From an uncultured Actinomycetes bacterium (GTDB taxonomy: Bacteria > Actinomycetota > Actinomycetes > Nanopelagicales > Nanopelagicaceae), in assembly GCA_903858325.1 (NCBI GenBank), contig CAIOIJ010000049.1, positions 1-58,002 of the forward strand: DNA of 58,002 bases, written 5' to 3'. Under the pieces are notes generated by a model. The model saw only the letters and a program-made list of their open reading frames with translations, was not told the origin of the DNA and did no database searches. Position 1 is the stretch's first letter, and each line of letters begins with the position of its first letter. This document shows positions 8,480 to 20,862 of this stretch, piece after piece. The position numbers were made by a program, and so were the translations under genes.

Positions 8480-9082
8480 GTGATTGCTTTCATCCCAGGA
8501 TTACTAGCGGGCTTATCGCTGATCATTGCTATCGGTGCACAAAATGCATTTGTCATAAAGCAAGGACTGACAAAAGAGCATGTCTTTCTCACTGTTGCAA
8601 TCTGTAGCGCAGCCGATGCACTTCTTATTGCGCTGGGAGCAGCCGGGCTTGGTCGAATTCTTCAATCTCACCCAACACTGCTCGAAATTATTCGCTGGTT
8701 TGGTGTTATCTACTTGATTTGGTTTGGCATCAAGAGTGCGCGCGCAATCTTTCGCAATGAATCAATGCCGACTTCAACTGGTCAATCTCCTAATGCCAAG
8801 AAAGTCGCTACGACGATTCTTGGTTTTACTTTCCTGAATCCACACGTGTATCTCGACACTGTAATCTTGCTTGGAAGTATTTCTAATCAATTCAAGTCAG
8901 ATCGTTGGTTTTTCAGTTTCGGTGCCATGCTCGCAAGTCTTATCTGGTTTACATCAATTGGATATGGCGCAAAGGCGGCGGCGCGCTTCATGTCTAAACC
9001 CATATTTTGGAAGATCTTGGATTCCATAATCGCTTGCGTAATGTTTTCCATAGCCGGCTATTTAGCTTTTGCGCAGTTATGA
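8480..9082 (+). CDS. LysE/ArgO family amino acid exporter
   Basis: LIIAIGAQNAFV and TFLNPHVYLDTVILLGS signatures; GTG start at 8480. Confidence 0.9.
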   Translation: MIAFIPGLLAGLSLIIAIGAQNAFVIKQGLTKEHVFLTVAICSAADALLIALGAAGLGRILQSHPTLLEIIRWFGVIYLIWFGIKSARAIFRNESMPTSTGQSPNAKKVATTILGFTFLNPHVYLDTVILLGSISNQFKSDRWFFSFGAMLASLIWFTSIGYGAKAAARFMSKPIFWKILDSIIACVMFSIAGYLAFAQL

Positions 9083-9982
9083 AATCTTGACTGCGCGTCC
9101 CCCTAAATACCATTCTGTAAAATAGATATCACCATCAGGAGAAACTGTTATCCCGTGAGGGCTATTGAGCTCCCCCTGGCTCACATTGGGAGCCACTGAA
9201 TCTGCTCCTACAATGCGATTTGGCCAACCTTCACGGCCGTTGACATTAGATGTAGGAATCAATGCACTTACAACATCCTTTTCATCAACTTCCAAAATCG
9301 CTCCATACAAATCGGTAACGAAAAGCGAATTTCCACGTACTGCAATCGATGAAGGGCTTGTCAAAATTGGTGAAACAATACTGCGAATATATTCGCCCGT
9401 GTGAGTTAGGAAAACGATTCTCTTATTGCTTCGGTCTGCAACAACAATTGAGCCATTTGAATCTCGAGAATCAATTGCAACTCCGTGCGCGCAAGCAAAA
9501 GTAGTTCCGCTGGAAATGCCATCAAAGGATTCGATAGTGCCATTACTACGTATGACATGTACCAAACTCAAACCATAACCATCGCCAATCCAAATATCGC
9601 CGTTAGCGGCGAGTGCAACAGATGTCGGTCTCCACTTTCCCGCTTCATCCTTGTTTCGCAGTGGTTGTTCGATCCGACGAAGAATTTTTCCATCAAGGTC
9701 AATCTGAACAACTTGGCCCGGCGCTTGTGCACCTGGATCGCAAATCCAAATTGAGTCATCGTGAGCAACTGCAATTCCATGAGAAACGGCAACGTCGACA
9801 GTAATTCTTTCAACCGCGTGGCTACGTGGATCTACGAAAAGTAGCGCTGCTCCCCCTGGCGCTTCAAAGACAACTCGCCCATCGCGTAGCACTCCAATAC
9901 CAGAATGCATCCAGCCATCTTTGGAATCGCCATCGAAGAGCGTCTCCCACTGAATTGGCTTTGCTAATGCTTTCAATTCCAT
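9077..9982 (-). CDS. NHL-repeat beta-propeller, peptidyl-alpha-hydroxyglycine amidating lyase (PAL)-like
   Basis: Repeats SHGIAV / PTSVAL / AHGVAI / PHGITV; IWIGDGYG and VADRSNKRI motifs; no signal peptide. Confidence 0.75.
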   Translation of the reverse strand: MELKALAKPIQWETLFDGDSKDGWMHSGIGVLRDGRVVFEAPGGAALLFVDPRSHAVERITVDVAVSHGIAVAHDDSIWICDPGAQAPGQVVQIDLDGKILRRIEQPLRNKDEAGKWRPTSVALAANGDIWIGDGYGLSLVHVIRSNGTIESFDGISSGTTFACAHGVAIDSRDSNGSIVVADRSNKRIVFLTHTGEYIRSIVSPILTSPSSIAVRGNSLFVTDLYGAILEVDEKDVVSALIPTSNVNGREGWPNRIVGADSVAPNVSQGELNSPHGITVSPDGDIYFTEWYLGGRAVKIS

Positions 9983-11175
9983 CCGACAATAACCTCGCCA
10001 GCTTCGTATGTTGCAACGGGATGCGCAAAGGGACCAGGTTCATTTTGTTCAGCATGCACTAAATAAATGTCAGGAATTCCATTGATCAATTGCATAACAG
10101 CTTCACGAATTTCAACGCGCGCAACTTGTTGCCCCACGCAACCGTGAATTCCATGACCAAAACCGACATGACCAAATGCATCACGTGATAAATCAAAACG
10201 ATCAGGGTCGGGAAACTGTGCGGGATCATGATTTGCCGCAACTGGTGAAACCGAAACAGACTGTCCAGCATTGATATGCACGCCCGCTAATTCAAGATCT
10301 TCGGTGGCTGTACGCGGGAATAGAGTGAGAAACATTGCGCCAACGCGCATGAACTCTTCCATTCCACCCATGATCAGCGTTGGATCATCGCGAAGCGCTT
10401 TGAGTTGATCTGGGTTATTGAGCAAAGCTGTCATGCATGTAGCAATCATGTAAGCAACAGAGTCACGTCCTGAAACAAATAACGAGAGCGATAATCCCTC
10501 GATCTCGGGAACAATCAAATCTGTTCGAAGCAAGTCGCTTAGAACATCTTCTGCGAGCAAATTTTTCTTGACATCTAGTACACGCCTAATGAATTCTATT
10601 TTCTTATCTGTCGTCGAATCGCCCACAAAAAGTTTTGAGTACTCATCGCGAAATTGTTCCGGTATTCCTAAGACGCGGATATGACCAGCGGCAGAAATAG
10701 GTTGCGCATAATGTTTTGTGAGATCGACTGGAGTGGGTTGAGATCGTAAATGTTCTAATTGCTTAGCAACTATCGCTTTGATATCACTTTCATAACCACG
10801 GGCTGACCTAACAGAAAAACGATTCAAAATTGTGCGGCGTATACGAGCATGCTGTTCACCATCGAGACCTAAAACGTTTCCCAGGTCGAGTTCGCTTCCC
10901 GAGCTCAATCCATATTGGGCGCTGAGTTCTTCGCCATGATGTGCTGGCATGCGCGCAGGAGATTGACTAAAACGCTTATCTTCTAGAACTAATTTTGCGA
11001 GTTCGTAGCGATTGATAATAAGACCTTCATGTCCATCTGAATAGTCCAAAGGTGTTGCTGCGCCTTCTTCGCGCCAAATTGCAAATGTTGGGGATGGACA
11101 TAGCGGTGTTCCATCGTTGGGTATACGACGCACTTCGTGCATCGGACACTTTGCCTCGTTCTTGATTTCATCCAT
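9973..11175 (-). CDS. Cytochrome P450
   Basis: Heme motif FGHGIHGCVG, EEFMR (ExxR), AANHDP...FPDPDRFD, I-helix SGRDS. Confidence 0.96.
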   Translation of the reverse strand: MDEIKNEAKCPMHEVRRIPNDGTPLCPSPTFAIWREEGAATPLDYSDGHEGLIINRYELAKLVLEDKRFSQSPARMPAHHGEELSAQYGLSSGSELDLGNVLGLDGEQHARIRRTILNRFSVRSARGYESDIKAIVAKQLEHLRSQPTPVDLTKHYAQPISAAGHIRVLGIPEQFRDEYSKLFVGDSTTDKKIEFIRRVLDVKKNLLAEDVLSDLLRTDLIVPEIEGLSLSLFVSGRDSVAYMIATCMTALLNNPDQLKALRDDPTLIMGGMEEFMRVGAMFLTLFPRTATEDLELAGVHINAGQSVSVSPVAANHDPAQFPDPDRFDLSRDAFGHVGFGHGIHGCVGQQVARVEIREAVMQLINGIPDIYLVHAEQNEPGPFAHPVATYEAGEVIVGWN

Positions 11176-11179
11176 TGAA

Positions 11180-12340
11180 CTATTTCTCCATCATTGATCT
11201 AGTTTGGCGAAACTCTCTCGGCATATTCCATCCTACGATTCCAGTTGTTACTCCATCGCGAATCGTAGCGGCGACGAATCGGTTCTCGCTAGTACTTCCT
11301 TGCACAATTGTTAGGGGTAGTTGCGAATCCAAATTGCCTAACATCAGAATCTTATTTCCAAATATTTCAGACCAAAAGAATGGGTGTGACGCTGGAGTAA
11401 TATCTCCAGTTGCAATGAATTTGGCCACTGCCAATCCCTGCTCGATTGCTGAAGTTTGATTTTCCAGACGCATGGCTTTGCCTGAGGCGACATCTGTCCA
11501 ACGTGCAACATCGCCAATTGCAAATATATGTGGCGTTGCTAAACCTTTGGAATCGCACAAAATCCCATTGGATACATCAATTCCAGAGTCTCTAAGCCAA
11601 TCTGTATTGGGATAGCAACCAATAGCTACGACCGCAATATCGCCGTCAATAGTTGAACCATCTGACAAAGTGAACGTTATCTTCGACTCATCTTCACTTA
11701 CCGCTACTACATCAACGCCAAATTTAGTTTTCACATGATTTTCTTCTAATAGAGCATTGATGCGCGATGAGAAGTGTCCACCTGTAAGAGGCAGTTGAGG
11801 CTCTGGCATCCGATCTATAAGAACAGTTTCAATTCCGCGTTCTCTCAAGTTCGAGACAACCTCTGAACCTAGAACGCCAGCACCAATGACAACAGCACTT
11901 TTTGCTTTATCTAATGACTGGCGCAAAGATAAGGCATCATCAATATTGCGCAGTACGTGTACACGTTTGAAATTTGCAGTATTAGGCAAACTGCGAGCAG
12001 ATGCCCCCGTTGCAATAATGAGTTCATCGAAGCGCAATTTTCTTGAATCTGTCCGTACTTCTTGTGCTGCGACATCCACTGAAAGTGCGCTCTCCTCTAG
12101 GTAGAACTGAAAACCTAATTCATCAAACTTTTCCTGCGAATCGATAAATGTTTGATTTTCATTCCACTTACCTGCAAGCACCTGCTTGGAAAGTGGAGGT
12201 CTGTTATATGGCAGATGTTTCTCTGCACCAACAAGAGTTATTCTCTTGTCATACCCTTCAGAACGTAACGCTTGCGCACAAGTAATTCCCGCAATTGAAG
12301 CACCGACTATTACAACACCAGATTCTTCAGGTGCAGACAT
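11180..12340 (-). CDS. NAD(P)H:ferredoxin reductase (putidaredoxin-reductase type)
   Basis: VIVGASIAG, PYNRPPLSK, IATGA, VIGAGVLGSE, FAIGDVA, PFFWSE. Confidence 0.92.
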   Translation of the reverse strand: MSAPEESGVVIVGASIAGITCAQALRSEGYDKRITLVGAEKHLPYNRPPLSKQVLAGKWNENQTFIDSQEKFDELGFQFYLEESALSVDVAAQEVRTDSRKLRFDELIIATGASARSLPNTANFKRVHVLRNIDDALSLRQSLDKAKSAVVIGAGVLGSEVVSNLRERGIETVLIDRMPEPQLPLTGGHFSSRINALLEENHVKTKFGVDVVAVSEDESKITFTLSDGSTIDGDIAVVAIGCYPNTDWLRDSGIDVSNGILCDSKGLATPHIFAIGDVARWTDVASGKAMRLENQTSAIEQGLAVAKFIATGDITPASHPFFWSEIFGNKILMLGNLDSQLPLTIVQGSTSENRFVAATIRDGVTTGIVGWNMPREFRQTRSMMEK

Positions 12341-12342
12341 CG

Positions 12343-12537
12343 CTATTCGTCCAGTGCAATCGCCTTTGCTGGGCATAGTGTCGCCGCTTTGCGCGCGAAT
12401 GCTACAAAATCATCACTTGGATTTTCATCGAGTAATACAACTAAACCTTCGTCATCTTGATCAAAAATTGAACCAGCAACTAAGGCACATTGACCTGCAC
12501 CAATACATGCTTCGCGATCCACTCTGATTTTCATCAT
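12343..12537 (-). CDS. [3Fe-4S] ferredoxin, P450 partner type
   Basis: CIGAGQC...CP motif in a 64-aa acidic protein; GGAGAG Shine-Dalgarno. Confidence 0.93.
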   Translation of the reverse strand: MMKIRVDREACIGAGQCALVAGSIFDQDDEGLVVLLDENPSDDFVAFARKAATLCPAKAIALDE

Positions 12538-12641
12538 CTCTCCATCAATCTCAAGGGTGACTCAGTTGCTAAAAAATACCCTATCGAAAAGGAATATGTG
12601 TAAATATTGGAGAGAATTTCGCCAGTGGTTACACTCGGAAA

Positions 12642-13051
12642 ATGTCAGCACTAGTCGCCAATATTCCAGCATTCTTCCTGACGACATTTTTGTTGGCGAT
12701 GGTGCCCGGTCAGGGTGTTGCAATGGTTCTTCGTCAATCGATTCTTGGTGGATCCAAAGCTGCCATGTACTTGGTCTCATAACAAATCTCACGAACGTAA
12801 AAGCTGCCGTTTTCGCAGTCGCGTTCCTGCCTCAATTTGTCCCCGACAACTTTTCGTTGCGACTGGGTATCTTCATCTTTGGCGCACTTTGGCCTTTAGT
12901 TTCGATGAGTTGGTACTTGATACTTGTTTGGACTGTAGATAAATCAGCAACTTTCATACAGAGAGCTCCAGTACATCGCGCTCTCACTGCAATCTCGGCT
13001 ATAGGTATTGCCGCACTTGCAATCGGACTGGCTCTCTCGACTTCGCGCTAG
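12642..13051 (+). pseudogene. LysE/RhtB translocator with internal deletion and frameshift
   Basis: Frame from ATG 12642 reads MSALVANIPAFFLTTFLLAMVPGQGVAMVLRQSILGGSKAAMY (stop 12780-12782); another frame from about 12770 reads LGLITNLTNVKAAVF to the C-terminus; central helices missing. Confidence 0.8.
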
Positions 13052-13616: not shown

Positions 13617-14474
13617 ATGACTACATGGGGTACACCAGATATGTTTTCCAACCTTGCACGAGTGATGGTTAGAACGCCGACAACAATCGGAAAATTTGTT
13701 GAAGAAGGTCATTGGAGAATGCCTGACACTGTGGCACTGCTTGAGGAACACAAATCTTTTACGCAATTACTGCAATCACTAGGTTGCACAGTCGATGTTG
13801 CGTCATCAATTGATGGTCTTGTCGATTCTGTCTACATGCATGATCCGATGATTATGACTCCGCACGGAGCAATTCTCTTGCGCATGGCAAAGCCAGTTCG
13901 CTCCCCTGAACCCGGATTTTTCCGCAAAGATTTAGAAGCAATCGGCGTTCCCATTCTCGGAGAACTTACGGCCCCTGCGTATGCCGATGGCGGCGATAAA
14001 GTTTGGCTAGATGAAAAAACTTTACTCATAGGACATAGTTATAGAACCAATACCGTGGGCATCGAACAAATTAGAGAAATGCTTACTCCGTTTGGCGTCG
14101 ATGTTCTTTCATTTGATTTACCGCACTATGAAGGCCCAGGAGCGGTACTGCATTTGATGAGCGTTCTATCCCCTATTGCTCATGACAAAGCTGTTGTTTA
14201 TGAACCTCTTGCCCCAGCACGTTTATTGCAATATTTGGAATCTCGCGGAATCACTTGGTTTACCGTCAGTGAAAAAGAGATGCTCACTCAAGGTAGCAAT
14301 ATTTTGGCAATTCGCCCCAACGTTGTTGTTTTAGCCGCAGGCAATCCCGAAATCGAAAGTAAATTGAAAAACGCGGGTGTTGAAGTTCATCTCTTTACTG
14401 GCAATAACGTAGCTGTCAAAGGCGATGGTGGGCCAACTTGCATGACGGCACCATTGCTGCGAATCCCTAACTAA
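13617..14474 (+). CDS. Amidinotransferase superfamily (dimethylarginine dimethylaminohydrolase / arginine deiminase-like)
   Basis: DSVYMHDP, DGGD, RTN, LHLMS, GDGGPTCMT catalytic Cys; leaderless ATG 13617 after CATACT. Confidence 0.85.
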   Translation: MTTWGTPDMFSNLARVMVRTPTTIGKFVEEGHWRMPDTVALLEEHKSFTQLLQSLGCTVDVASSIDGLVDSVYMHDPMIMTPHGAILLRMAKPVRSPEPGFFRKDLEAIGVPILGELTAPAYADGGDKVWLDEKTLLIGHSYRTNTVGIEQIREMLTPFGVDVLSFDLPHYEGPGAVLHLMSVLSPIAHDKAVVYEPLAPARLLQYLESRGITWFTVSEKEMLTQGSNILAIRPNVVVLAAGNPEIESKLKNAGVEVHLFTGNNVAVKGDGGPTCMTAPLLRIPN

Positions 14475-14573: not shown

Positions 14574-16193
14574 CTAAACCTCTGAAATCATCGTTATTGC
14601 ACTGGCTGGACATTCAGAGACACAGATTCCACAACCTTTGCAGTAATCCATATTGATTTCGAAACCTTTGCCAGGGCCGAGTTTGATGATTGCATTATCT
14701 GGGCAAACCCCAAAGCAGTTATCGCATTCAAAGCAATTTCCACACGACATACAACGACGTGCTTCGTAGAGTGCGGTTGATTCATCAAGACCTTTGACGA
14801 CCTCTGAAAAATCTTGCACACGACGCGATGCTTCTAGACGTTCACGCACAGCATGTGGTGCATCGGTGTAATACCAAGTGTTGAGATCTTCAAATGCAAC
14901 TACAGGCTTATCGCTCTCTTTTTCATATGTTGTCATACGTAGCCAAGCATCAATATTGCGAGCAGCTTTTTTGCCATGACCAATACTTGTCGTCACTGTG
15001 CGATCTGCAGGGATCATGTCACCACCAGCAAAAATACCCGGATGCGTAGTCATCATCGTGTGATCAACTGGCATCACACCATCTTTAGTATCGATATCTG
15101 CGCTGTTACCAAGTAAGGAGAAATCTACTTCTTGACCAAGTGCCAAAATTAGTGAATCGGCTTCTAGGTATTCGATTTCACCTGTTGGTTGCGGAAATCC
15201 AGATTCATCTAGTTCCATTTTTTCAATTTGAAGAGATCCACCTTCGGCATGCTTGACGGTGGATAGCCACTTCATCAAAATACCTTCTTCGAGGGCCTCT
15301 TCGATTTCCATGTCATTTGCCGGTGCTTTGTCGCGAGTTCGTCGGTAAACAATGATCGCTTCTTCTGCACCTAAACGCTTTGCAGAACGCGCAACATCCA
15401 TTGCAGTATTTCCACCACCATAGACAACAACTTTGCGACCTAACAACGGTTGATTTCCATCTTCAACATCGTGCAAAACCTTTATTGCATCGAGTATGCG
15501 CGCAGATTCACTGGCTGGAATATATGCACGTTTTGAAAGTTGAGCACCAATTGCTAGAAAGACTGCATTGAAACCTTCATTGAGTGCATCGTGAACATCA
15601 TCTACCCGTGTATCGAATTCGAATTTCACGCCCATCTCTTTGATTCGATTTACTTCAGCATCGAGAATGTTGCGTGGTAAGCGGTATTGAGGGATTCCGT
15701 AGCGCATCATTCCGCCCGGTGCATGGGTTGCATCGCGAACTACAACGGTGTGTCCCATTCTTCGCAAATGATATGCAGCCGATAAACCAGCAGGTCCTGC
15801 ACCAATGACCAGAACGCTAAATCCAGTTTCATGATCAGGAGGATCTATCTTCCAGCCCTTTTCAATTGCATGATCTCCCAAGAAGCGTTCCACTGAGTTG
15901 ATTCCCACTGCTTCATCGAGCTCTGCGCGATTGCATGCAACTTGGCAGGGGTGATAACAGACGCGTCCCATGATTGCTGGGAATGGGTTTTCTTTTATCA
16001 GTTCTCGCCATGCAGCTTCGTAGGAACCATCTTCTGCGATGTAGAGCCAATTCTGAATATTTTCTCCTGCGGGACAAGCGTTATTACATGGTGGCATGCG
16101 GTGAACATATTCAGGATGTTCTACACGCCAAGTACCAGTGTGATTAGCCAAACTAGAACCAACATTGAGAGTGATTGCATATGGTTTTTCCAC
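14574..16193 (-). CDS. GltD/DsrL-like Fe-S flavoprotein fused with a 2-oxoacid oxidoreductase delta (ferredoxin) subunit
   Basis: PCNNACP, GRVCYHPCQVACNR, GAGPAG, GGGNTAMDVAR, FAGGD; C-terminal CFECDNCFGVCP and YCKGCGICVSECP; N-terminal GSSLANHTGTWR. Confidence 0.85.
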   Translation of the reverse strand: MEKPYAITLNVGSSLANHTGTWRVEHPEYVHRMPPCNNACPAGENIQNWLYIAEDGSYEAAWRELIKENPFPAIMGRVCYHPCQVACNRAELDEAVGINSVERFLGDHAIEKGWKIDPPDHETGFSVLVIGAGPAGLSAAYHLRRMGHTVVVRDATHAPGGMMRYGIPQYRLPRNILDAEVNRIKEMGVKFEFDTRVDDVHDALNEGFNAVFLAIGAQLSKRAYIPASESARILDAIKVLHDVEDGNQPLLGRKVVVYGGGNTAMDVARSAKRLGAEEAIIVYRRTRDKAPANDMEIEEALEEGILMKWLSTVKHAEGGSLQIEKMELDESGFPQPTGEIEYLEADSLILALGQEVDFSLLGNSADIDTKDGVMPVDHTMMTTHPGIFAGGDMIPADRTVTTSIGHGKKAARNIDAWLRMTTYEKESDKPVVAFEDLNTWYYTDAPHAVRERLEASRRVQDFSEVVKGLDESTALYEARRCMSCGNCFECDNCFGVCPDNAIIKLGPGKGFEINMDYCKGCGICVSECPASAITMISEV

Positions 16194-16195
16194 GG

Positions 16196-17188
16196 TTACT
16201 CCCCCATCAATTCATAACGCGCAATATTTTTATCTGCCATTCGACGCAAGTGTGAAATTACATCCTCACGACGAGTTGGTGAGAAGAGATGTGCATATCG
16301 AGACTGTAATTTCAAATACTCTTCGACATCGACTTTATGGCGAATTTTTGTAGATGCAACAACTTCTCCATTGACCGCTTCAAATACTGGGAAGAGACCA
16401 CTTTGCGTTGCAAGGCGCGCAATTTTTATCGTGTCACACGATGCCGAACCCCAACCGAGTGGGCATGGAACGAGAACGTGCAAATAACGGGCGCCGCGAA
16501 ATTCCATTGCGCGAGTAACTTTTGCTTCTAGATCGCGAAGGTCGGCAATTGTCGCAGTAGCTACATAAGGAATTTCGTGAGCCATTGCGATGCGCGGCAA
16601 AAACTTTCCTTGACCAAAAGTATTTCCTGGCTCTTCTCCAACTGCTTGTGTTGTTGCAGTTCGCGCAGCGGGAGGTGTTGCACCAGAGCGTTGAACTCCC
16701 GTATTCATATATGCCTCATTGTCGTAACAGATGTAGAGAACATCATCATTGCGCTCGAACATTCCACTGAGTGCGCCGAATCCGATATCAACTGTTGCGC
16801 CATCTCCCCCTTGGCCAACGACGCGGATATCGGTGCGTCCTTGAGCTTTGAGGGCAGCAGCCACACCTGTTGCAACTGCTGGCGCATTTCCAAAGAGTGA
16901 ATGCAACCAAGCAATGCGCCATGAACTTTCTGGGTATGGAGTTGAAAATACTTCGAGGCATCCTGTTGCATTGACTGCAATGATTTGATCATTGGCCGCA
17001 CGCATCGCGGCATCGAGTGCGTAGCGAGCACCTAGTGCTTCACCGCAACCCTGACATGCACGATGTCCTGATGTAAGCGCATTAGCTCGATCTGGATTTG
17101 ATTGCCCAGATCTTTCTTCTTCGGTAAGTAAGCGGTTACCTACAGCAAAACTACCTACTTGATAAAACTTCACCGGCGTTGTTGTCAT
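16196..17188 (-). CDS. porB: Pyruvate/2-oxoacid:ferredoxin oxidoreductase beta subunit (TPP)
   Basis: GHRACQGCG, TGCLEV, GGDG...YDNEAYMNTG, PCPLGW. Confidence 0.92.
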   Translation of the reverse strand: MTTTPVKFYQVGSFAVGNRLLTEEERSGQSNPDRANALTSGHRACQGCGEALGARYALDAAMRAANDQIIAVNATGCLEVFSTPYPESSWRIAWLHSLFGNAPAVATGVAAALKAQGRTDIRVVGQGGDGATVDIGFGALSGMFERNDDVLYICYDNEAYMNTGVQRSGATPPAARTATTQAVGEEPGNTFGQGKFLPRIAMAHEIPYVATATIADLRDLEAKVTRAMEFRGARYLHVLVPCPLGWGSASCDTIKIARLATQSGLFPVFEAVNGEVVASTKIRHKVDVEEYLKLQSRYAHLFSPTRREDVISHLRRMADKNIARYELMGE

Positions 17189-18384
17189 CGCAGTGCCCTC
17201 TCCTTGGCAAGTTCACTTTCAACAATATTTACATCCAGGTCAAGGAAAGTAAGTTCGGCGACCGAATCATTCATCGCACGAAGTACATATTCCTTGAGAG
17301 ATTTCATTGTGATCGAGCGCCCACCCAAACCTGCGATGAGAGTGAAATCCTTGATTTGAGTTCCACGAAGTGATGTACGGACATCAGCCGTGACGATTCC
17401 ACCGACACCTGTAGAAAGTGCTTTCTCTAGTACAACAACACGTTTGGCACCAGTTACTGCTTGCCGCAGTTGATCGAATGGAAATGGTCTAAATGAAGTG
17501 AGTCCAACTAATCCAATGCTGTGACCTTGTACCTGCATCTCATCAACTAAATCTTTGAGCGTGCCAATAATTGAACCTAAAGCAATAATAATTGTTTCAG
17601 CGCCATCACACTTGTATGACTTGAGCAGTCCACCTGAATCACGGCCAAACTGCGATTCGAACTCGACGCCAACTTCTTGAATGGTCTCTAAGGAATCAAT
17701 CATTCTTTGATGGGCTAAATACTTTACTTCCAAGAAAGTTTCAGGACCTACCATCGCTCCAATTGAAACAGGCTCAGCTGGATCCAATACTTGACGTGGA
17801 ACAAATGGTTTCAAGAACTTACTTACTTCAGGCTCTTCAGGGATATCAACTTGTTCATATGCATGAGTGAGAATGAATCCATCCATACAAACCATCACTG
17901 GAAGTGACATCTCTTCTGCGATTCTAAAAGCTTGAATATGTAAATCAGTTGCCTCTTGATTGTTTTCTGCGTAGAGCTGAATCCAACCTGAATCTCGTTG
18001 TGACATGGAATCGCTGTGATCATTCCAAATATTGATAGGAGCACCAATTGCGCGATTAGCAACAGTCATAACAATAGGTAGCCCTAAACCAGATGCGTTA
18101 TAAACAGCTTCAACCATATAAAGCAATCCCTGACTTGCAGTAGCTGTGTATGTACGTGCACCAGTTGCACTCGAACCGATTGCTACCGACATTGCAGAAA
18201 ACTCTGATTCAACATTGATAAATTCGCAGCCTGTTAGCGTTCCGTTCTTTACCAATTGACTCAAACCTTCAACAATGTGTGTTTGTGGCGAGATTGGGTA
18301 GGCACAAATAACTTGCGGCTTGCATGCAGCCACAACATCGGCAATCGCTTTTGAACCTTCAACTTGTCTAAGCATGTGCGGCAA
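17185..18384 (-). CDS. porA: Pyruvate/2-oxoacid:ferredoxin oxidoreductase alpha subunit
   Basis: AYPISPQT, VESEFSA, TATASQGL, ANRAIGAPINIWNDHSD, DGFILTH; true start may be the second Met (18375). Confidence 0.92.
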   Translation of the reverse strand: MPHMLRQVEGSKAIADVVAACKPQVICAYPISPQTHIVEGLSQLVKNGTLTGCEFINVESEFSAMSVAIGSSATGARTYTATASQGLLYMVEAVYNASGLGLPIVMTVANRAIGAPINIWNDHSDSMSQRDSGWIQLYAENNQEATDLHIQAFRIAEEMSLPVMVCMDGFILTHAYEQVDIPEEPEVSKFLKPFVPRQVLDPAEPVSIGAMVGPETFLEVKYLAHQRMIDSLETIQEVGVEFESQFGRDSGGLLKSYKCDGAETIIIALGSIIGTLKDLVDEMQVQGHSIGLVGLTSFRPFPFDQLRQAVTGAKRVVVLEKALSTGVGGIVTADVRTSLRGTQIKDFTLIAGLGGRSITMKSLKEYVLRAMNDSVAELTFLDLDVNIVESELAKERALR

Positions 18385-18937
18385 CCATTTTCTCTACATA
18401 AGCAAAAGCTGCGGTAGCGGCGGCGCAGTTACCAGCAGCGATCTTTGGCTTGAATTTTTCATTGATTGCATCAGTAACAGAATGCAACGAAACAACGCCT
18501 GTATAAGCTGCGAACGCGCCTAGCAACACGGCATTAGGGACCGGGCGTCCAAGATGTTCCATTGCCAATTCGGTTGCTGGAACAATAATGATGCGATTAT
18601 GCTCCATCAGTTCTTCGGAAAGTTCGAGTTCTTGAGCGTTCATTTTCGAATTTATGATGACAAAGCCATCTTTTTTCAAACCTGAGAAGACATCAACCTG
18701 CTTGAGCAAACTTGCATCTTGAATAATGAGTGAATCTGGCTCCATGATTGGTTCACGAATACGAATTGGTTTCTCTGAAATTCTGCAAAATGCAACAACT
18801 GGAGCGCCTGTGCGTTCTGAACCAAAACTTGGAAATGCTTGCGCATGTTTCTTTTCGTCGAATACGGCCTGCGCTAATAATTCAGCAGCGGTAACAACTC
18901 CTTGTCCACCTCTCCCGTGGATACGGACTTGAAACAT
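18368..18937 (-). CDS. porC: Pyruvate/2-oxoacid:ferredoxin oxidoreductase gamma subunit
   Basis: RIHGRGGQGVVT, FPSFGSERTGAPV, PNAVLLGA. Confidence 0.92.
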   Translation of the reverse strand: MFQVRIHGRGGQGVVTAAELLAQAVFDEKKHAQAFPSFGSERTGAPVVAFCRISEKPIRIREPIMEPDSLIIQDASLLKQVDVFSGLKKDGFVIINSKMNAQELELSEELMEHNRIIIVPATELAMEHLGRPVPNAVLLGAFAAYTGVVSLHSVTDAINEKFKPKIAAGNCAAATAAFAYVEKMVAAHA

Positions 18938-19488: not shown

Positions 19489-20862
19489 CTAGAGCGGCGA
19501 AAAGGTCGATGTGAAGTGGCGCAGTGCGGCAGGTTCGTGCGATATTCGATAGCCACGCAAATTTTTCGCGTTCTTCACAACTTCTAAACAGACCTCTATA
19601 ACATAATCAATATGGCTTTGCGTATACGTGCGACGAGGAATAGCTAAGCGCACCAATTCCATTGCGGCTGGGACTTCACTGCCATCTGGTTTACGACCAA
19701 ACATCACAGTTCCAATTTCGCAGCCACGAATCCCACCGACTTTGTAGAGTTCAATTGCAAGTGATTGACCGGGGTAATTCAATGGATCAATATGTGGCAA
19801 GAGCGCTTTCGCATCAATGTAGACGGCATGTCCACCAATTGGTAGAACACATGGCATTCCACCTTTGACTAATGCATTCCCGAGATATGCCGTGGACTGA
19901 ATTCGATATTTCAAATAATCATGCGATACGACTTCAGTAAGACCTACAGCGAGTGCTTCTAAATCTCGTCCCGCTAATCCGCCATACGTTGGAAATCCTT
20001 CAGTGAGAATCAATAGGTTTCGACAGATTTCGGCGAGTGCATCATCATTGAGAGCGAGCCAGCCACCGATATTTCCAAGTGGATCTTTCTTTGCGCTCAT
20101 AGTCATGCCATCGGCTAAGCCCGCAATTTCACGAACGATCTCCACGACATCACGTTGGGATTGTCCCGCTTCTCGTTCGCGTATGAACCAAGCATTTTCT
20201 GCAAAACGACAAGCATCTAGAAAAAATGGAAGTGAATACTTCTTACAAATTGCACTTACGCCCTTGAGGTTTTCTAATGAGACAGGTTGACCACCACCAG
20301 AATTGTTTGTAATTGTCATCATCACTAAAGGAATGTTTTCAACACCTGTAGAAAGAATGAATTTTTCTAGTGCGGCCAAATCCATATTTCCTTTGAAAGG
20401 ATGCAGGCTGGATGGATCTTTACCTTCAGGAATTACTAAGTCGACAGCTTCGGCTCCGCTATATTCGATATTAGCTCGCGTTGTATCAAAATGAGTATTA
20501 CTCGGTATGGATTTACCTGCTCCCCCAATTGCAGTAAACAGGATTTTCTCAGCAGCTCTTCCTTGGTGTGTAGGAATAACATGTTTGTAGGGAAATAGAT
20601 TCTGCACTGCATCTTTGAATAACAACCACGATGGAGAACCAGCGTATGACTCGTCTCCGTGTTGAATTGCTGCCCATTGATTTCGGCTCATTGCGCCAGT
20701 ACCAGAATCCGTCAAAAGATCAATCAAAACATTATCTGAATGCAGTGAAAAGAGATTGAAACCTGCTTCTTCAATAAATCTATTTCGCTCTTTCTCTGTT
20801 GTCATAGCAATGGGTGCAACTGAATGGATTTTGAAAGGTTCGATAATTGTTTTGAATGTCAT
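19489..20862 (-). CDS. tnaA: Tryptophanase (tryptophan indole-lyase)
   Basis: IDLLTDSGT, HQGRAAE, FDTT, MSAKKD (PLP Lys), LRHFT; the Asp and His residues distinguish it from tyrosine phenol-lyase (FTTT / LRFFT). Confidence 0.9.
   Translation of the reverse strand: MTFKTIIEPFKIHSVAPIAMTTEKERNRFIEEAGFNLFSLHSDNVLIDLLTDSGTGAMSRNQWAAIQHGDESYAGSPSWLLFKDAVQNLFPYKHVIPTHQGRAAEKILFTAIGGAGKSIPSNTHFDTTRANIEYSGAEAVDLVIPEGKDPSSLHPFKGNMDLAALEKFILSTGVENIPLVMMTITNNSGGGQPVSLENLKGVSAICKKYSLPFFLDACRFAENAWFIREREAGQSQRDVVEIVREIAGLADGMTMSAKKDPLGNIGGWLALNDDALAEICRNLLILTEGFPTYGGLAGRDLEALAVGLTEVVSHDYLKYRIQSTAYLGNALVKGGMPCVLPIGGHAVYIDAKALLPHIDPLNYPGQSLAIELYKVGGIRGCEIGTVMFGRKPDGSEVPAAMELVRLAIPRRTYTQSHIDYVIEVCLEVVKNAKNLRGYRISHEPAALRHFTSTFSPL

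Follow-up and report, generated by a model that had tools for sequence, protein, structure and literature searches.

The stretch of DNA analyzed here, which we call the window, comprises 58,002 nt of an uncultured Nanopelagicaceae bacterium (GenBank assembly GCA_903858325.1, contig CAIOIJ010000049.1, positions 1 to 58,002). We examined a four-gene cassette on its minus strand that encodes a ferredoxin, a ferredoxin reductase, a cytochrome P450, and an NHL-repeat propeller resembling PAL, the lyase domain of the animal amidating enzyme PAM. The source genome was 1.40 Mb in size and 81% complete, and its closest named relatives were Candidatus Planktophila and metagenome-assembled genomes (MAGs) of lake actinobacteria, which suggests that it comes from freshwater Nanopelagicales. 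An earlier note on this DNA had described the four genes as tightly packed, and reading out the coordinates and junctions gave exactly that arrangement, with Pfam matches for all four identities. In order along the minus strand, the genes are as follows.

12343..12537, minus strand: ferredoxin of the 3Fe-4S type, 64 aa (motif C-x2-A-x2-C...C; Pfam Fer4_15, E 2e-11, and Fer4_13)
11180..12340, minus strand: FAD/NADH ferredoxin reductase, 386 aa (Pfam Pyr_redox_2 and Reductase_C)
9973..11175, minus strand: cytochrome P450, 400 aa, of the rhamnose-linked subfamily called cluster A below, a putative O-methyl-rhamnose demethylase (Pfam p450)
9077..9982, minus strand: PAL-like six-bladed NHL propeller, 301 aa, a predicted Zn-dependent hydroxymethyl (hemiformal) lyase (Pfam NHL)

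This four-gene run is operon-like. The reductase start was taken as the ATG at 12340, 2 nt past the ferredoxin stop (an alternative start at 12376 overlaps the ferredoxin), the P450 lies 4 nt downstream of the reductase, and the propeller open reading frame (ORF) overlaps the end of the P450 by 10 nt. The C-x2-A-x2-C...C pattern is a signature of 3Fe-4S ferredoxins, the type that the earlier note had named. With its heme-Cys motif, its ExxR segment (EEFMR), its acid-alcohol pair (D238/S239), and the adjoining Fe-S ferredoxin and FAD reductase, the P450 belongs to a class I three-component system. Promoter and terminator scans found nothing beyond chance (promoter-like sites, 2 versus 8.9 expected), and the region has no listed RNA holder.

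We modeled the propeller with AlphaFold from a 95-sequence alignment and obtained six blades (pLDDT 94.5; pTM 0.92), with H68, H166, and H276 opening the inner strands of alternate blades. The motifs read earlier from the translation are all present: VSHGI at residue 66, DGY at 134, CAHGV at 164, VADRSNKRI at 181, and SPHGI at 274. Rat PAL (3fvz) was the second-ranked Foldseek match (E 1.9e-12). The superposition on rat PAL that the earlier note had proposed as a check bore out the six blades and aligned residues 5-301 with VIA-align (Z 27.4; rmsd 2.8; 262 residues aligned), but the fold is generic: 3fvz ranked 33rd (best Z, 29.5), and 32 other propeller entries match as well or better. Equally high scores went to TRIM NHL domains and to Pizza proteins, which are designed, and we therefore rejected an assignment to PAL from the fold alone. 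Virginiamycin B lyase (Vgb) was rejected as well (Pfam, 30.4 bits against a cut-off of 50; NCBIfam, 23 against 600). Database labels of the propeller's relatives read "hypothetical," "NHL repeat protein," or, where assigned automatically, "peptidylamidoglycolate lyase."

Since the top direct alignments to PDB entries showed NHL repeats only, active-site residues were mapped through a bridge, the bacterial protein P0104, which has a hydrophobic segment at its N terminus. P0104 can be aligned with rat PAL over its full length (E 3.7e-43) and with the window propeller at 31%; positions were carried from the propeller to P0104 to 3fvz, with a numbering offset of 491. This placed five residues of the window propeller at the PAL core. 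In the Exiguobacterium enzyme ExiPAL, three His bind zinc, a Tyr and an Arg are catalytic, and the Asp after the last His (H309/D310) binds calcium (PMC10900485). The mapped and family-specific positions, all on the minus strand, are listed here.

9905..9907, minus strand: His26, family specific, Val in rat PAL (conserved in 96/107 and 75/77 of the sets defined below)
9857..9859, minus strand: Pro42, at the position of rat Arg533 by the bridged alignment; column not conserved
9779..9781, minus strand: His68, rat His585 by the bridged alignment, predicted Zn ligand
9575..9577, minus strand: Tyr136, rat Tyr654 by the bridged alignment, predicted catalytic base
9485..9487, minus strand: His166, rat His690 by the bridged alignment, predicted Zn ligand
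9431..9433, minus strand: Arg184, rat Arg706 by the bridged alignment
9218..9226, minus strand: W253-P254-N255 loop, a family signature absent from the PAL-type P0104 (W in 101/107 and 77/77)
9155..9157, minus strand: His276, rat His786 by the bridged alignment (ExiPAL H309; PMC10900485), predicted Zn ligand

Conservation was counted in 107 single-domain representatives (280 to 440 aa, out of 149 new proteins) and in 77 near-full-length proteins from the surveyed loci. All five core residues were retained in 104 and 76 of these, respectively. Outside the core the family departs from PAL. The Arg533 column holds Arg in only 1 of the 77 locus proteins, and Arg anywhere in columns 40 to 44 was found in 14/77 locus proteins and 15/107 representatives. 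The position of the calcium ligand Asp787 is G277 in the window, with Asp in 1/77 and 5/107, and E290-W291 is a further family-specific gain. The Arg533 of rat PAL, part of an FHR motif, is said in the 2009 structure paper to hold the substrate carboxylate. The loss of this position, together with the gain of H26 and the WPN loop, fits a substrate without a carboxylate. By these residues the propeller is a distinct PAL-derived family, its lyase core intact and its substrate pocket apparently remodeled, and it is best called PAL-like rather than PAL; in that form the earlier idea of a PAL-like lyase stands, without the Arg533 and Asp787 positions. A crude hydropathy scan found no signal peptide in the propeller, in keeping with the cytoplasmic, catabolic system that the earlier note had envisaged.

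The same note had favored an N-acylglycine or N-alkylamide as the substrate. On an account of this class, the P450 hydroxylates the carbon beside an amide or guanidine nitrogen and the propeller cleaves a stable carbinolamide much as PAL does. The five intact residues suit it, and carbinolamides and N-hydroxymethylguanidine persist long enough (half-life of >1 h; PMC12508155) for a lyase to be needed. The lost Arg533 position argues against an alpha-hydroxyglycine substrate and makes glyoxylate release unlikely, and the gene neighborhoods described next are predominantly rhamnose, inositol, and methylgalactose contexts. These indicate O-methyl sugars or cyclitols and formaldehyde, not amides, and we consider amide chemistry distinctly unlikely.

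We surveyed the company of the propeller at the best 80 of 222 confirmed loci, with genes called by our own script, and scored three kinds of neighbor: a P450 up to 4.5 kb away, a formaldehyde dehydrogenase resembling FdhA up to 400 nt away, and a MocD-like oxygenase (di-iron, desaturase fold) up to 3.5 kb away. At least one of the three was present at 59 of the 80 loci. A P450 was near the propeller in 29, at a distance of ≤300 nt in 23 of those; an FdhA-like gene lay beside it in 25, of which 23 had neither P450 nor MocD nearby; and a MocD-like gene was found in 7, 2 of them also with FdhA. TIGR02819 (glutathione-independent formaldehyde dehydrogenase) scored over its cut-off for two of the four FdhA-like proteins scanned, and the MocE model TIGR02377 passed its cut-off in L032. 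The rhizopine oxygenase MocD converts 3-O-methyl-scyllo-inosamine to scyllo-inosamine according to PMC2593844 and PMC10107442. FdhA occurred in 73 of 401 genomes of the phylum (two of the 73 being the unpublished genomes G325 and G523), mostly as a single copy; at that frequency, the direct adjacency to the propeller seen in several clades far exceeds chance.

The P450 partners themselves fell into six clusters with 22 to 35% mutual identity. Cluster A, the window type, accounted for 16 loci. Cluster B (4 loci) had the 6-O-methylgalactose demethylase 6G5O as its best PDB match (E 6.4e-34), clusters C (4 loci) and D (2 loci) were in inositol/rhizopine-type sugar loci, and E and F were found at 2 loci and 1 locus. 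At one locus (L031) a P450-reductase fusion occupies the place held by MocD/E/F at three others (L032, L037, and L055), with the propeller kept and with LacI, sugar transporter, and isomerase neighbors in common in an inositol-type context. A PhyH dioxygenase is directly upstream of the propeller at L070 and L225. An evenly drawn sample of 400 genomes of the phylum, scored for few candidates per genome so that copies may be missed, yielded the propeller twice, both times adjacent to an oxygenase: L224 (ferredoxin and P450) and L225 (PhyH and a rhamnosidase). A search for IolE in five MocD/P450 genomes gave only matches below the cut-off. Among 7990 scored longer candidates, none had the propeller fused to FdhA or to an oxygenase, which is weak evidence; the sole relevant fusion was P0390, 660 aa, which joins a Gfo/Idh/MocA dehydrogenase to a propeller of the same family. 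From this company of unrelated methylated-sugar oxygenases and a formaldehyde dehydrogenase, we infer that the common ground is a hydroxymethyl intermediate and formaldehyde.

Such a pattern might also be expected if the propeller were a general formaldehyde-handling enzyme, stripping formaldehyde from hydroxymethyl adducts on O, N, or S or converting formaldehyde to its hydrate and back, with no specificity for a P450 product. It is kept near both formaldehyde sources and sinks, it adjoins FdhA without P450 or MocD in the 23 loci mentioned above, and 11 loci form an orphan clade without any partner. Moreover, the deepest branches of a quick propeller tree were FdhA linked (Chloroflexota; in Actinomycetota, Acidimicrobiia and Microlunatus), with oxygenase-linked groups interleaved; this tree and a FastTree P450 tree were used solely to show interleaved contexts. 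Against such a general role, sugar or cyclitol loci are the setting of almost all the oxygenase-linked clades, in which the propeller is translationally coupled to the oxygenase and in most cases lies within 300 nt of the P450. Most FdhA genes lack the propeller (none of the 30 best FdhA loci, one of them from G325, carried it within ∼1.5 kb). We regard this alternative as unlikely.

Several propeller loci showed features of their own. Their carriers include cultured environmental bacteria (Salinibacterium, L038; Arthrobacter, L035; Demequina, L029; and Rhodococcus, L032). In SAR202/Dehalococcoidia loci (L045, L051, L053, L054, L068, L069, L071, and L074), an FdhA-like dehydrogenase accompanies two tandem PAL-like propellers and a third, divergent NHL protein, together with DUF1800, a methyltransferase-like protein, a class III aminotransferase, and an enolase-superfamily enzyme. 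One family member (L060) is in a record labeled Thaumarchaeota and has no oxygenase or FdhA neighbor. Five lake MAGs (L003, L005, L006, L011, and L016) are labeled Bifidobacterium breve or Streptomyces griseus; their genes cluster with Nanopelagicales, and the labels look wrong.

The P450 survey covered the best 80 of 105 confirmed metagenome loci, which gave 79 distinct loci, 34 of them shorter than 8 kb. Two features of the window P450 were followed.

10459..10473, minus strand: I-helix S-G-R-D-S, residues 235 to 239 (G-R-D in 74/79 loci; also in 6G5O, as AGGRDT)
10138..10140, minus strand: heme-ligating Cys346, in the motif FGHGIHGCVG

Rhamnose genes were present at 32 of the 79 loci and at 26 of the 45 that reached at least 8 kb. 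The counts were 16 for GH78 (often with GH3), 9 for RhaI, 12 each for mutarotase-like and RhaS-like genes, and 3 for RhaB-like genes; RhaI and RhaD scored over their cut-offs, and the other rhamnose genes matched below them. This association extends across the P450 subfamily tree. The orthologues at L008, L009, and L093 (79 to 80% identity) have the full gene order: rhaB-rhaD-rhaI, lacI, ferredoxin-reductase-P450-propeller, GH78. In the source genome, RhaI, RhaD, RhaB, and GH78 are on another contig (C108). O-methyl rhamnoses are reported from cyanobacterial exopolysaccharides in PMC4500136.

GH78 suggests a different substrate too: the P450 may oxidize aglycones that GH78 and GH3 free from rhamnosylated glycosides of plants or algae, with the propeller a lactonase- or anomerase-like enzyme and no C1 chemistry involved. 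The glycosidase counts are consistent with this, as are the nearest P450 structures, CYP105/107 enzymes of large hydrophobic substrates, and the lactonase propellers, which reach a Z of ∼27. It leaves unexplained the FdhA adjacency, the MocD and CYP236A-like partners, and the PAL residues, and many of the P450 loci carry monosaccharide rhamnose ABC transporter and mutarotase genes. SMP-30 lactonases, further, hold their metal with Glu, Asn, and Asp, not with three His. Aglycone oxidation therefore seems improbable to us.

The propeller accompanied the P450 at 14 of the 79 loci (one partial). Another 20, mostly of one clade (L115-L150, L161; e.g., L121:2269-3977), carried an aldo-keto reductase and a creatininase-family protein, along with AraC, and this pair was never found together with the propeller (0/79). 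We infer that the pair is an alternative route, which oxidizes the intermediate to a formyl group and then hydrolyzes it, and that a single lyase replaces it. As an observation in its own right, the pair may constitute an undescribed oxidize-and-deformylate route. The alternation also raises the prospect that the propeller is itself a Zn hydrolase of a formate ester or formamide, formed after the P450 or a dehydrogenase has oxidized the hydroxymethyl intermediate further. A His3-Zn site can activate water, as in carbonic anhydrase, and the alternating partner is of a hydrolase family; the dehydrogenase fusion P0390 and the ADH and esterase of marine CYP236A clusters (PMC10033563) also fit. Yet the propeller loci lack the aldo-keto reductase as well, so the propeller would replace both steps, the window cassette contains no dehydrogenase, and the Tyr/Arg pair is the lyase apparatus of PAL. 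A hydrolase is thus quite improbable.

Two other sets of P450s deserve mention. In a clade spanning L128-L154, and at L188 and L189, a cluster A P450 without ferredoxin or reductase neighbors lies between pknB and pabA/trpG, near GH3 and GH78 and, in genomes G051 and G141, ∼13 kb from rhaI. The source genome encodes a second, CYP236A-like P450 on contig C1 (L085:786-1838, minus strand; best PDB match 6G5O, E 8.4e-43; AGGRDT), a candidate for demethylating methylhexoses in an actinobacterium of freshwater type.

The reading we favor, with a probability of about 0.42, is that the window P450 hydroxylates the O-methyl group of a methyl-rhamnose and that the hemiformal so formed is split by the Zn propeller into rhamnose and formaldehyde. 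The chain from NADH through reductase and ferredoxin to P450 is the standard one of class I systems, and electrons would take this path through the components found here (FAD/NADH reductase and 3Fe-4S ferredoxin). The P450 would turn R-O-CH3 into R-O-CH2OH, with gene context pointing to methyl-L-rhamnose as the substrate. In the propeller, whose relevant residues are in place, a predicted Zn held by H68/H166/H276 would bind the hydroxyl group, and Y136, its reactivity tuned by R184, would take up the proton; the C-O bond would then be cleaved, in a chemistry modeled on C-N cleavage by PAL. Contig C108 encodes the RhaI/RhaB/RhaD pathway, into which the released rhamnose would pass. At neutral pH, formaldehyde hemiacetals of aliphatic alcohols break down on a time scale of minutes. 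The propeller would accordingly be an accelerator of a reaction that also proceeds uncatalyzed, and for that reason dispensable.

The P450-propeller pairing is real and recurrent. An obligate pair was rejected, as each gene occurs alone, and the propeller is an accessory, because only the 14 P450 loci above carry it and both genes are found separately. Separability and a short-lived intermediate fit an accessory catalyst and equally fit a general formaldehyde-adduct enzyme. The separation can be seen at one site across different Planktophila-like genomes: a slot after rarD/yajQ-like genes and before psiE holds either a lone propeller (L014, L016-L018, and L034) or a lone cluster A P450 (L102, L105, and L107).

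It is important to note that a number of results weigh against sugar O-demethylation by this pair. The recurrence that the earlier note had proposed to look for is there, but 200 other genomes of the family contained the propeller in 8, the P450 in 3, and never both, and five of five orphan-propeller genomes tested had only distant P450s and none of the window type. The surveyed loci are related to each other, so that the counts overstate their independence. None of P450, FdhA, and MocD was present at 21 of the 80 propeller loci, the 30 propeller-free FdhA loci belong here as well, and 45 of the 79 P450 loci had neither the propeller nor the aldo-keto reductase/creatininase pair. The creatininase-family partner has an amidohydrolase fold and could indicate an N-methyl substrate, a point for the carbinolamide account given above. 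The window and its closest relatives (L001-L006 and L024) had no sugar genes in the fetched flanks. The window P450 is CYP105/107-like, its nearest structure being StvP2 (6M4P; 33 to 34% identity; TM ∼0.84), and it is only ∼28% identical to the CYP236A-like cluster, so that the G-R-D motif common to its subfamily and 6G5O is a weak hint. According to the CYP236A paper (PMC6292453), the hydroxylated intermediate is short-lived and decomposes quickly, in which case a lyase may be unnecessary. Finally, the source genome, at 81% completeness, showed no FdhA, no mycothiol-dependent formaldehyde dehydrogenase over the cut-off, and no formate-tetrahydrofolate ligase.

The flanks of the cassette bear on the carbinolamide account as well, since a DDAH/amidinotransferase-like gene and an ArgO/LysE exporter flank it in the window and in close relatives. 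The former (13617-14474, plus strand) occurred in 9 of the 200 family genomes, all 9 lacking both P450 and propeller, and was absent from 19 sampled genomes of the same genus. It was therefore rejected as a clue to the substrate and is a probable insertion-site neighbor. The exporter gene, of the LysE/RhtB family (12557-13051, plus strand), stands immediately upstream of the ferredoxin and is broken, with its N-terminal part in one frame (∼12642-12782), the remainder in another, and a Pfam match to the C-terminal half only. Farther along, translations identified a four-gene cluster of the pyruvate/2-oxoacid:ferredoxin oxidoreductase type (14574-18937, minus strand; gamma, alpha, beta, and a GltD-like 4Fe-4S subunit), unexpected for an aerobic streamlined actinobacterium, and a tryptophanase/tyrosine phenol-lyase-like gene (19489-20862, minus strand).

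In the usual description of oxidative O-demethylation, hydroxylation comes first and formaldehyde is then lost spontaneously, and the authors of the MgdL study knew of only PAL and MgdL as dedicated lyases for such intermediates (PMC12508155). More tentatively still, the propeller may be an undescribed zinc hemiformal lyase family on the PAL scaffold, a portable module that serves at least six P450 lineages, MocD-type di-iron oxygenases, PhyH, and FdhA and catalyzes the release of formaldehyde in O-demethylation, and the window P450 may be the first O-methyl-rhamnose demethylase. If so, a PAL-fold enzyme for O-linked intermediates would be a new activity. One branch of the bacterial PAL homologues, a group whose natural functions are stated to be unclear (PMC10900485), would acquire a natural role, and there would be a hint as to where animal amidating chemistry has relatives. 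P450 sugar demethylation would extend beyond marine methylgalactose to methyl-rhamnose, in freshwater actinobacteria that are abundant and streamlined and that would thereby gain access to methylated algal and cyanobacterial sugars, with a bearing on the turnover of methylated dissolved sugars.

Among known systems, the animal PAM PAL domain (rat 3FVZ/3FW0) and ExiPAL (PMC10900485) share with the propeller the six blades, the His3 Zn site, and the Tyr and Arg positions, and the propeller is predicted likewise to act on the product of a monooxygenase. Unlike PAL, it lacks Arg533 and Asp787, has the extra H26 and WPN loop, is cytoplasmic, is only ∼20% identical in structural alignment, and has a P450, MocD, PhyH, or FdhA as its partner in place of PHM. 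Thus, the earlier proposal that the P450 replaces PHM holds as an analogy, oxygenase followed by lyase being the most likely logic, but the cassette is not an amidation system. Two other sources, PMC10303134 and bioRxiv 10.1101/2025.10.30.685615, provided only PAL background in the portions seen.

On the oxygenase side, CYP236A of marine Bacteroidota (6G5O; PMC6292453 and PMC10033563) resembles the window P450 in its ferredoxin and reductase, its sugar-utilization context, and its G-R-D-T/S I-helix, and actinobacterial CYP236A homologues occur in propeller-bearing loci. The window P450 is a separate CYP105/107-like, rhamnose-tied subfamily: its identity to 6G5O is below the family level (>40%), and 6G5O is absent from its 60 best PDB matches and is the top match of true CYP236A homologues. 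The two papers describe the marine clusters as containing an ADH and an esterase and the decay of the intermediate as spontaneous. The rhizopine oxygenase system MocDEF provides the MocD/E/F-like partners of the propeller at 7 of 80 loci, in inositol-type contexts; MocD has a di-iron desaturase fold and is not a P450, and the portions of the MocDEF literature seen mention no lyase. StvP2 is the nearest solved structure to the window P450, below family-level identity, and is a biosynthetic enzyme (streptovaricin) that oxidizes an O-methyl group.

The closest precedent, though nonhomologous, is the methylguanidine demethylase MgdH/MgdL, in which an oxygenase forms a hydroxymethyl intermediate and a second gene product frees formaldehyde (PMC12508155). 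MgdH is a 2-oxoglutarate dioxygenase, and MgdL is a beta-barrel that uses Asp49/Arg51 for catalysis and is encoded in a guanidine riboswitch operon; the AlphaFold model of the propeller shows a propeller fold instead. The authors of that study state that MgdL is not homologous to PAL and that PAL is the only similar lyase known, and its intermediate is N linked, against the O-linked one proposed for the propeller. Searches of the Creative Commons literature of PubMed Central and bioRxiv (supplements and subscription papers lie outside this scope) found no description of a P450, FdhA, or MocD paired with a PAL-like propeller. The pairing across the propeller family is real, recurrent, and apparently undescribed. 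As we read it, the cassette works like PHM/PAL and like MgdH/MgdL and belongs to neither.

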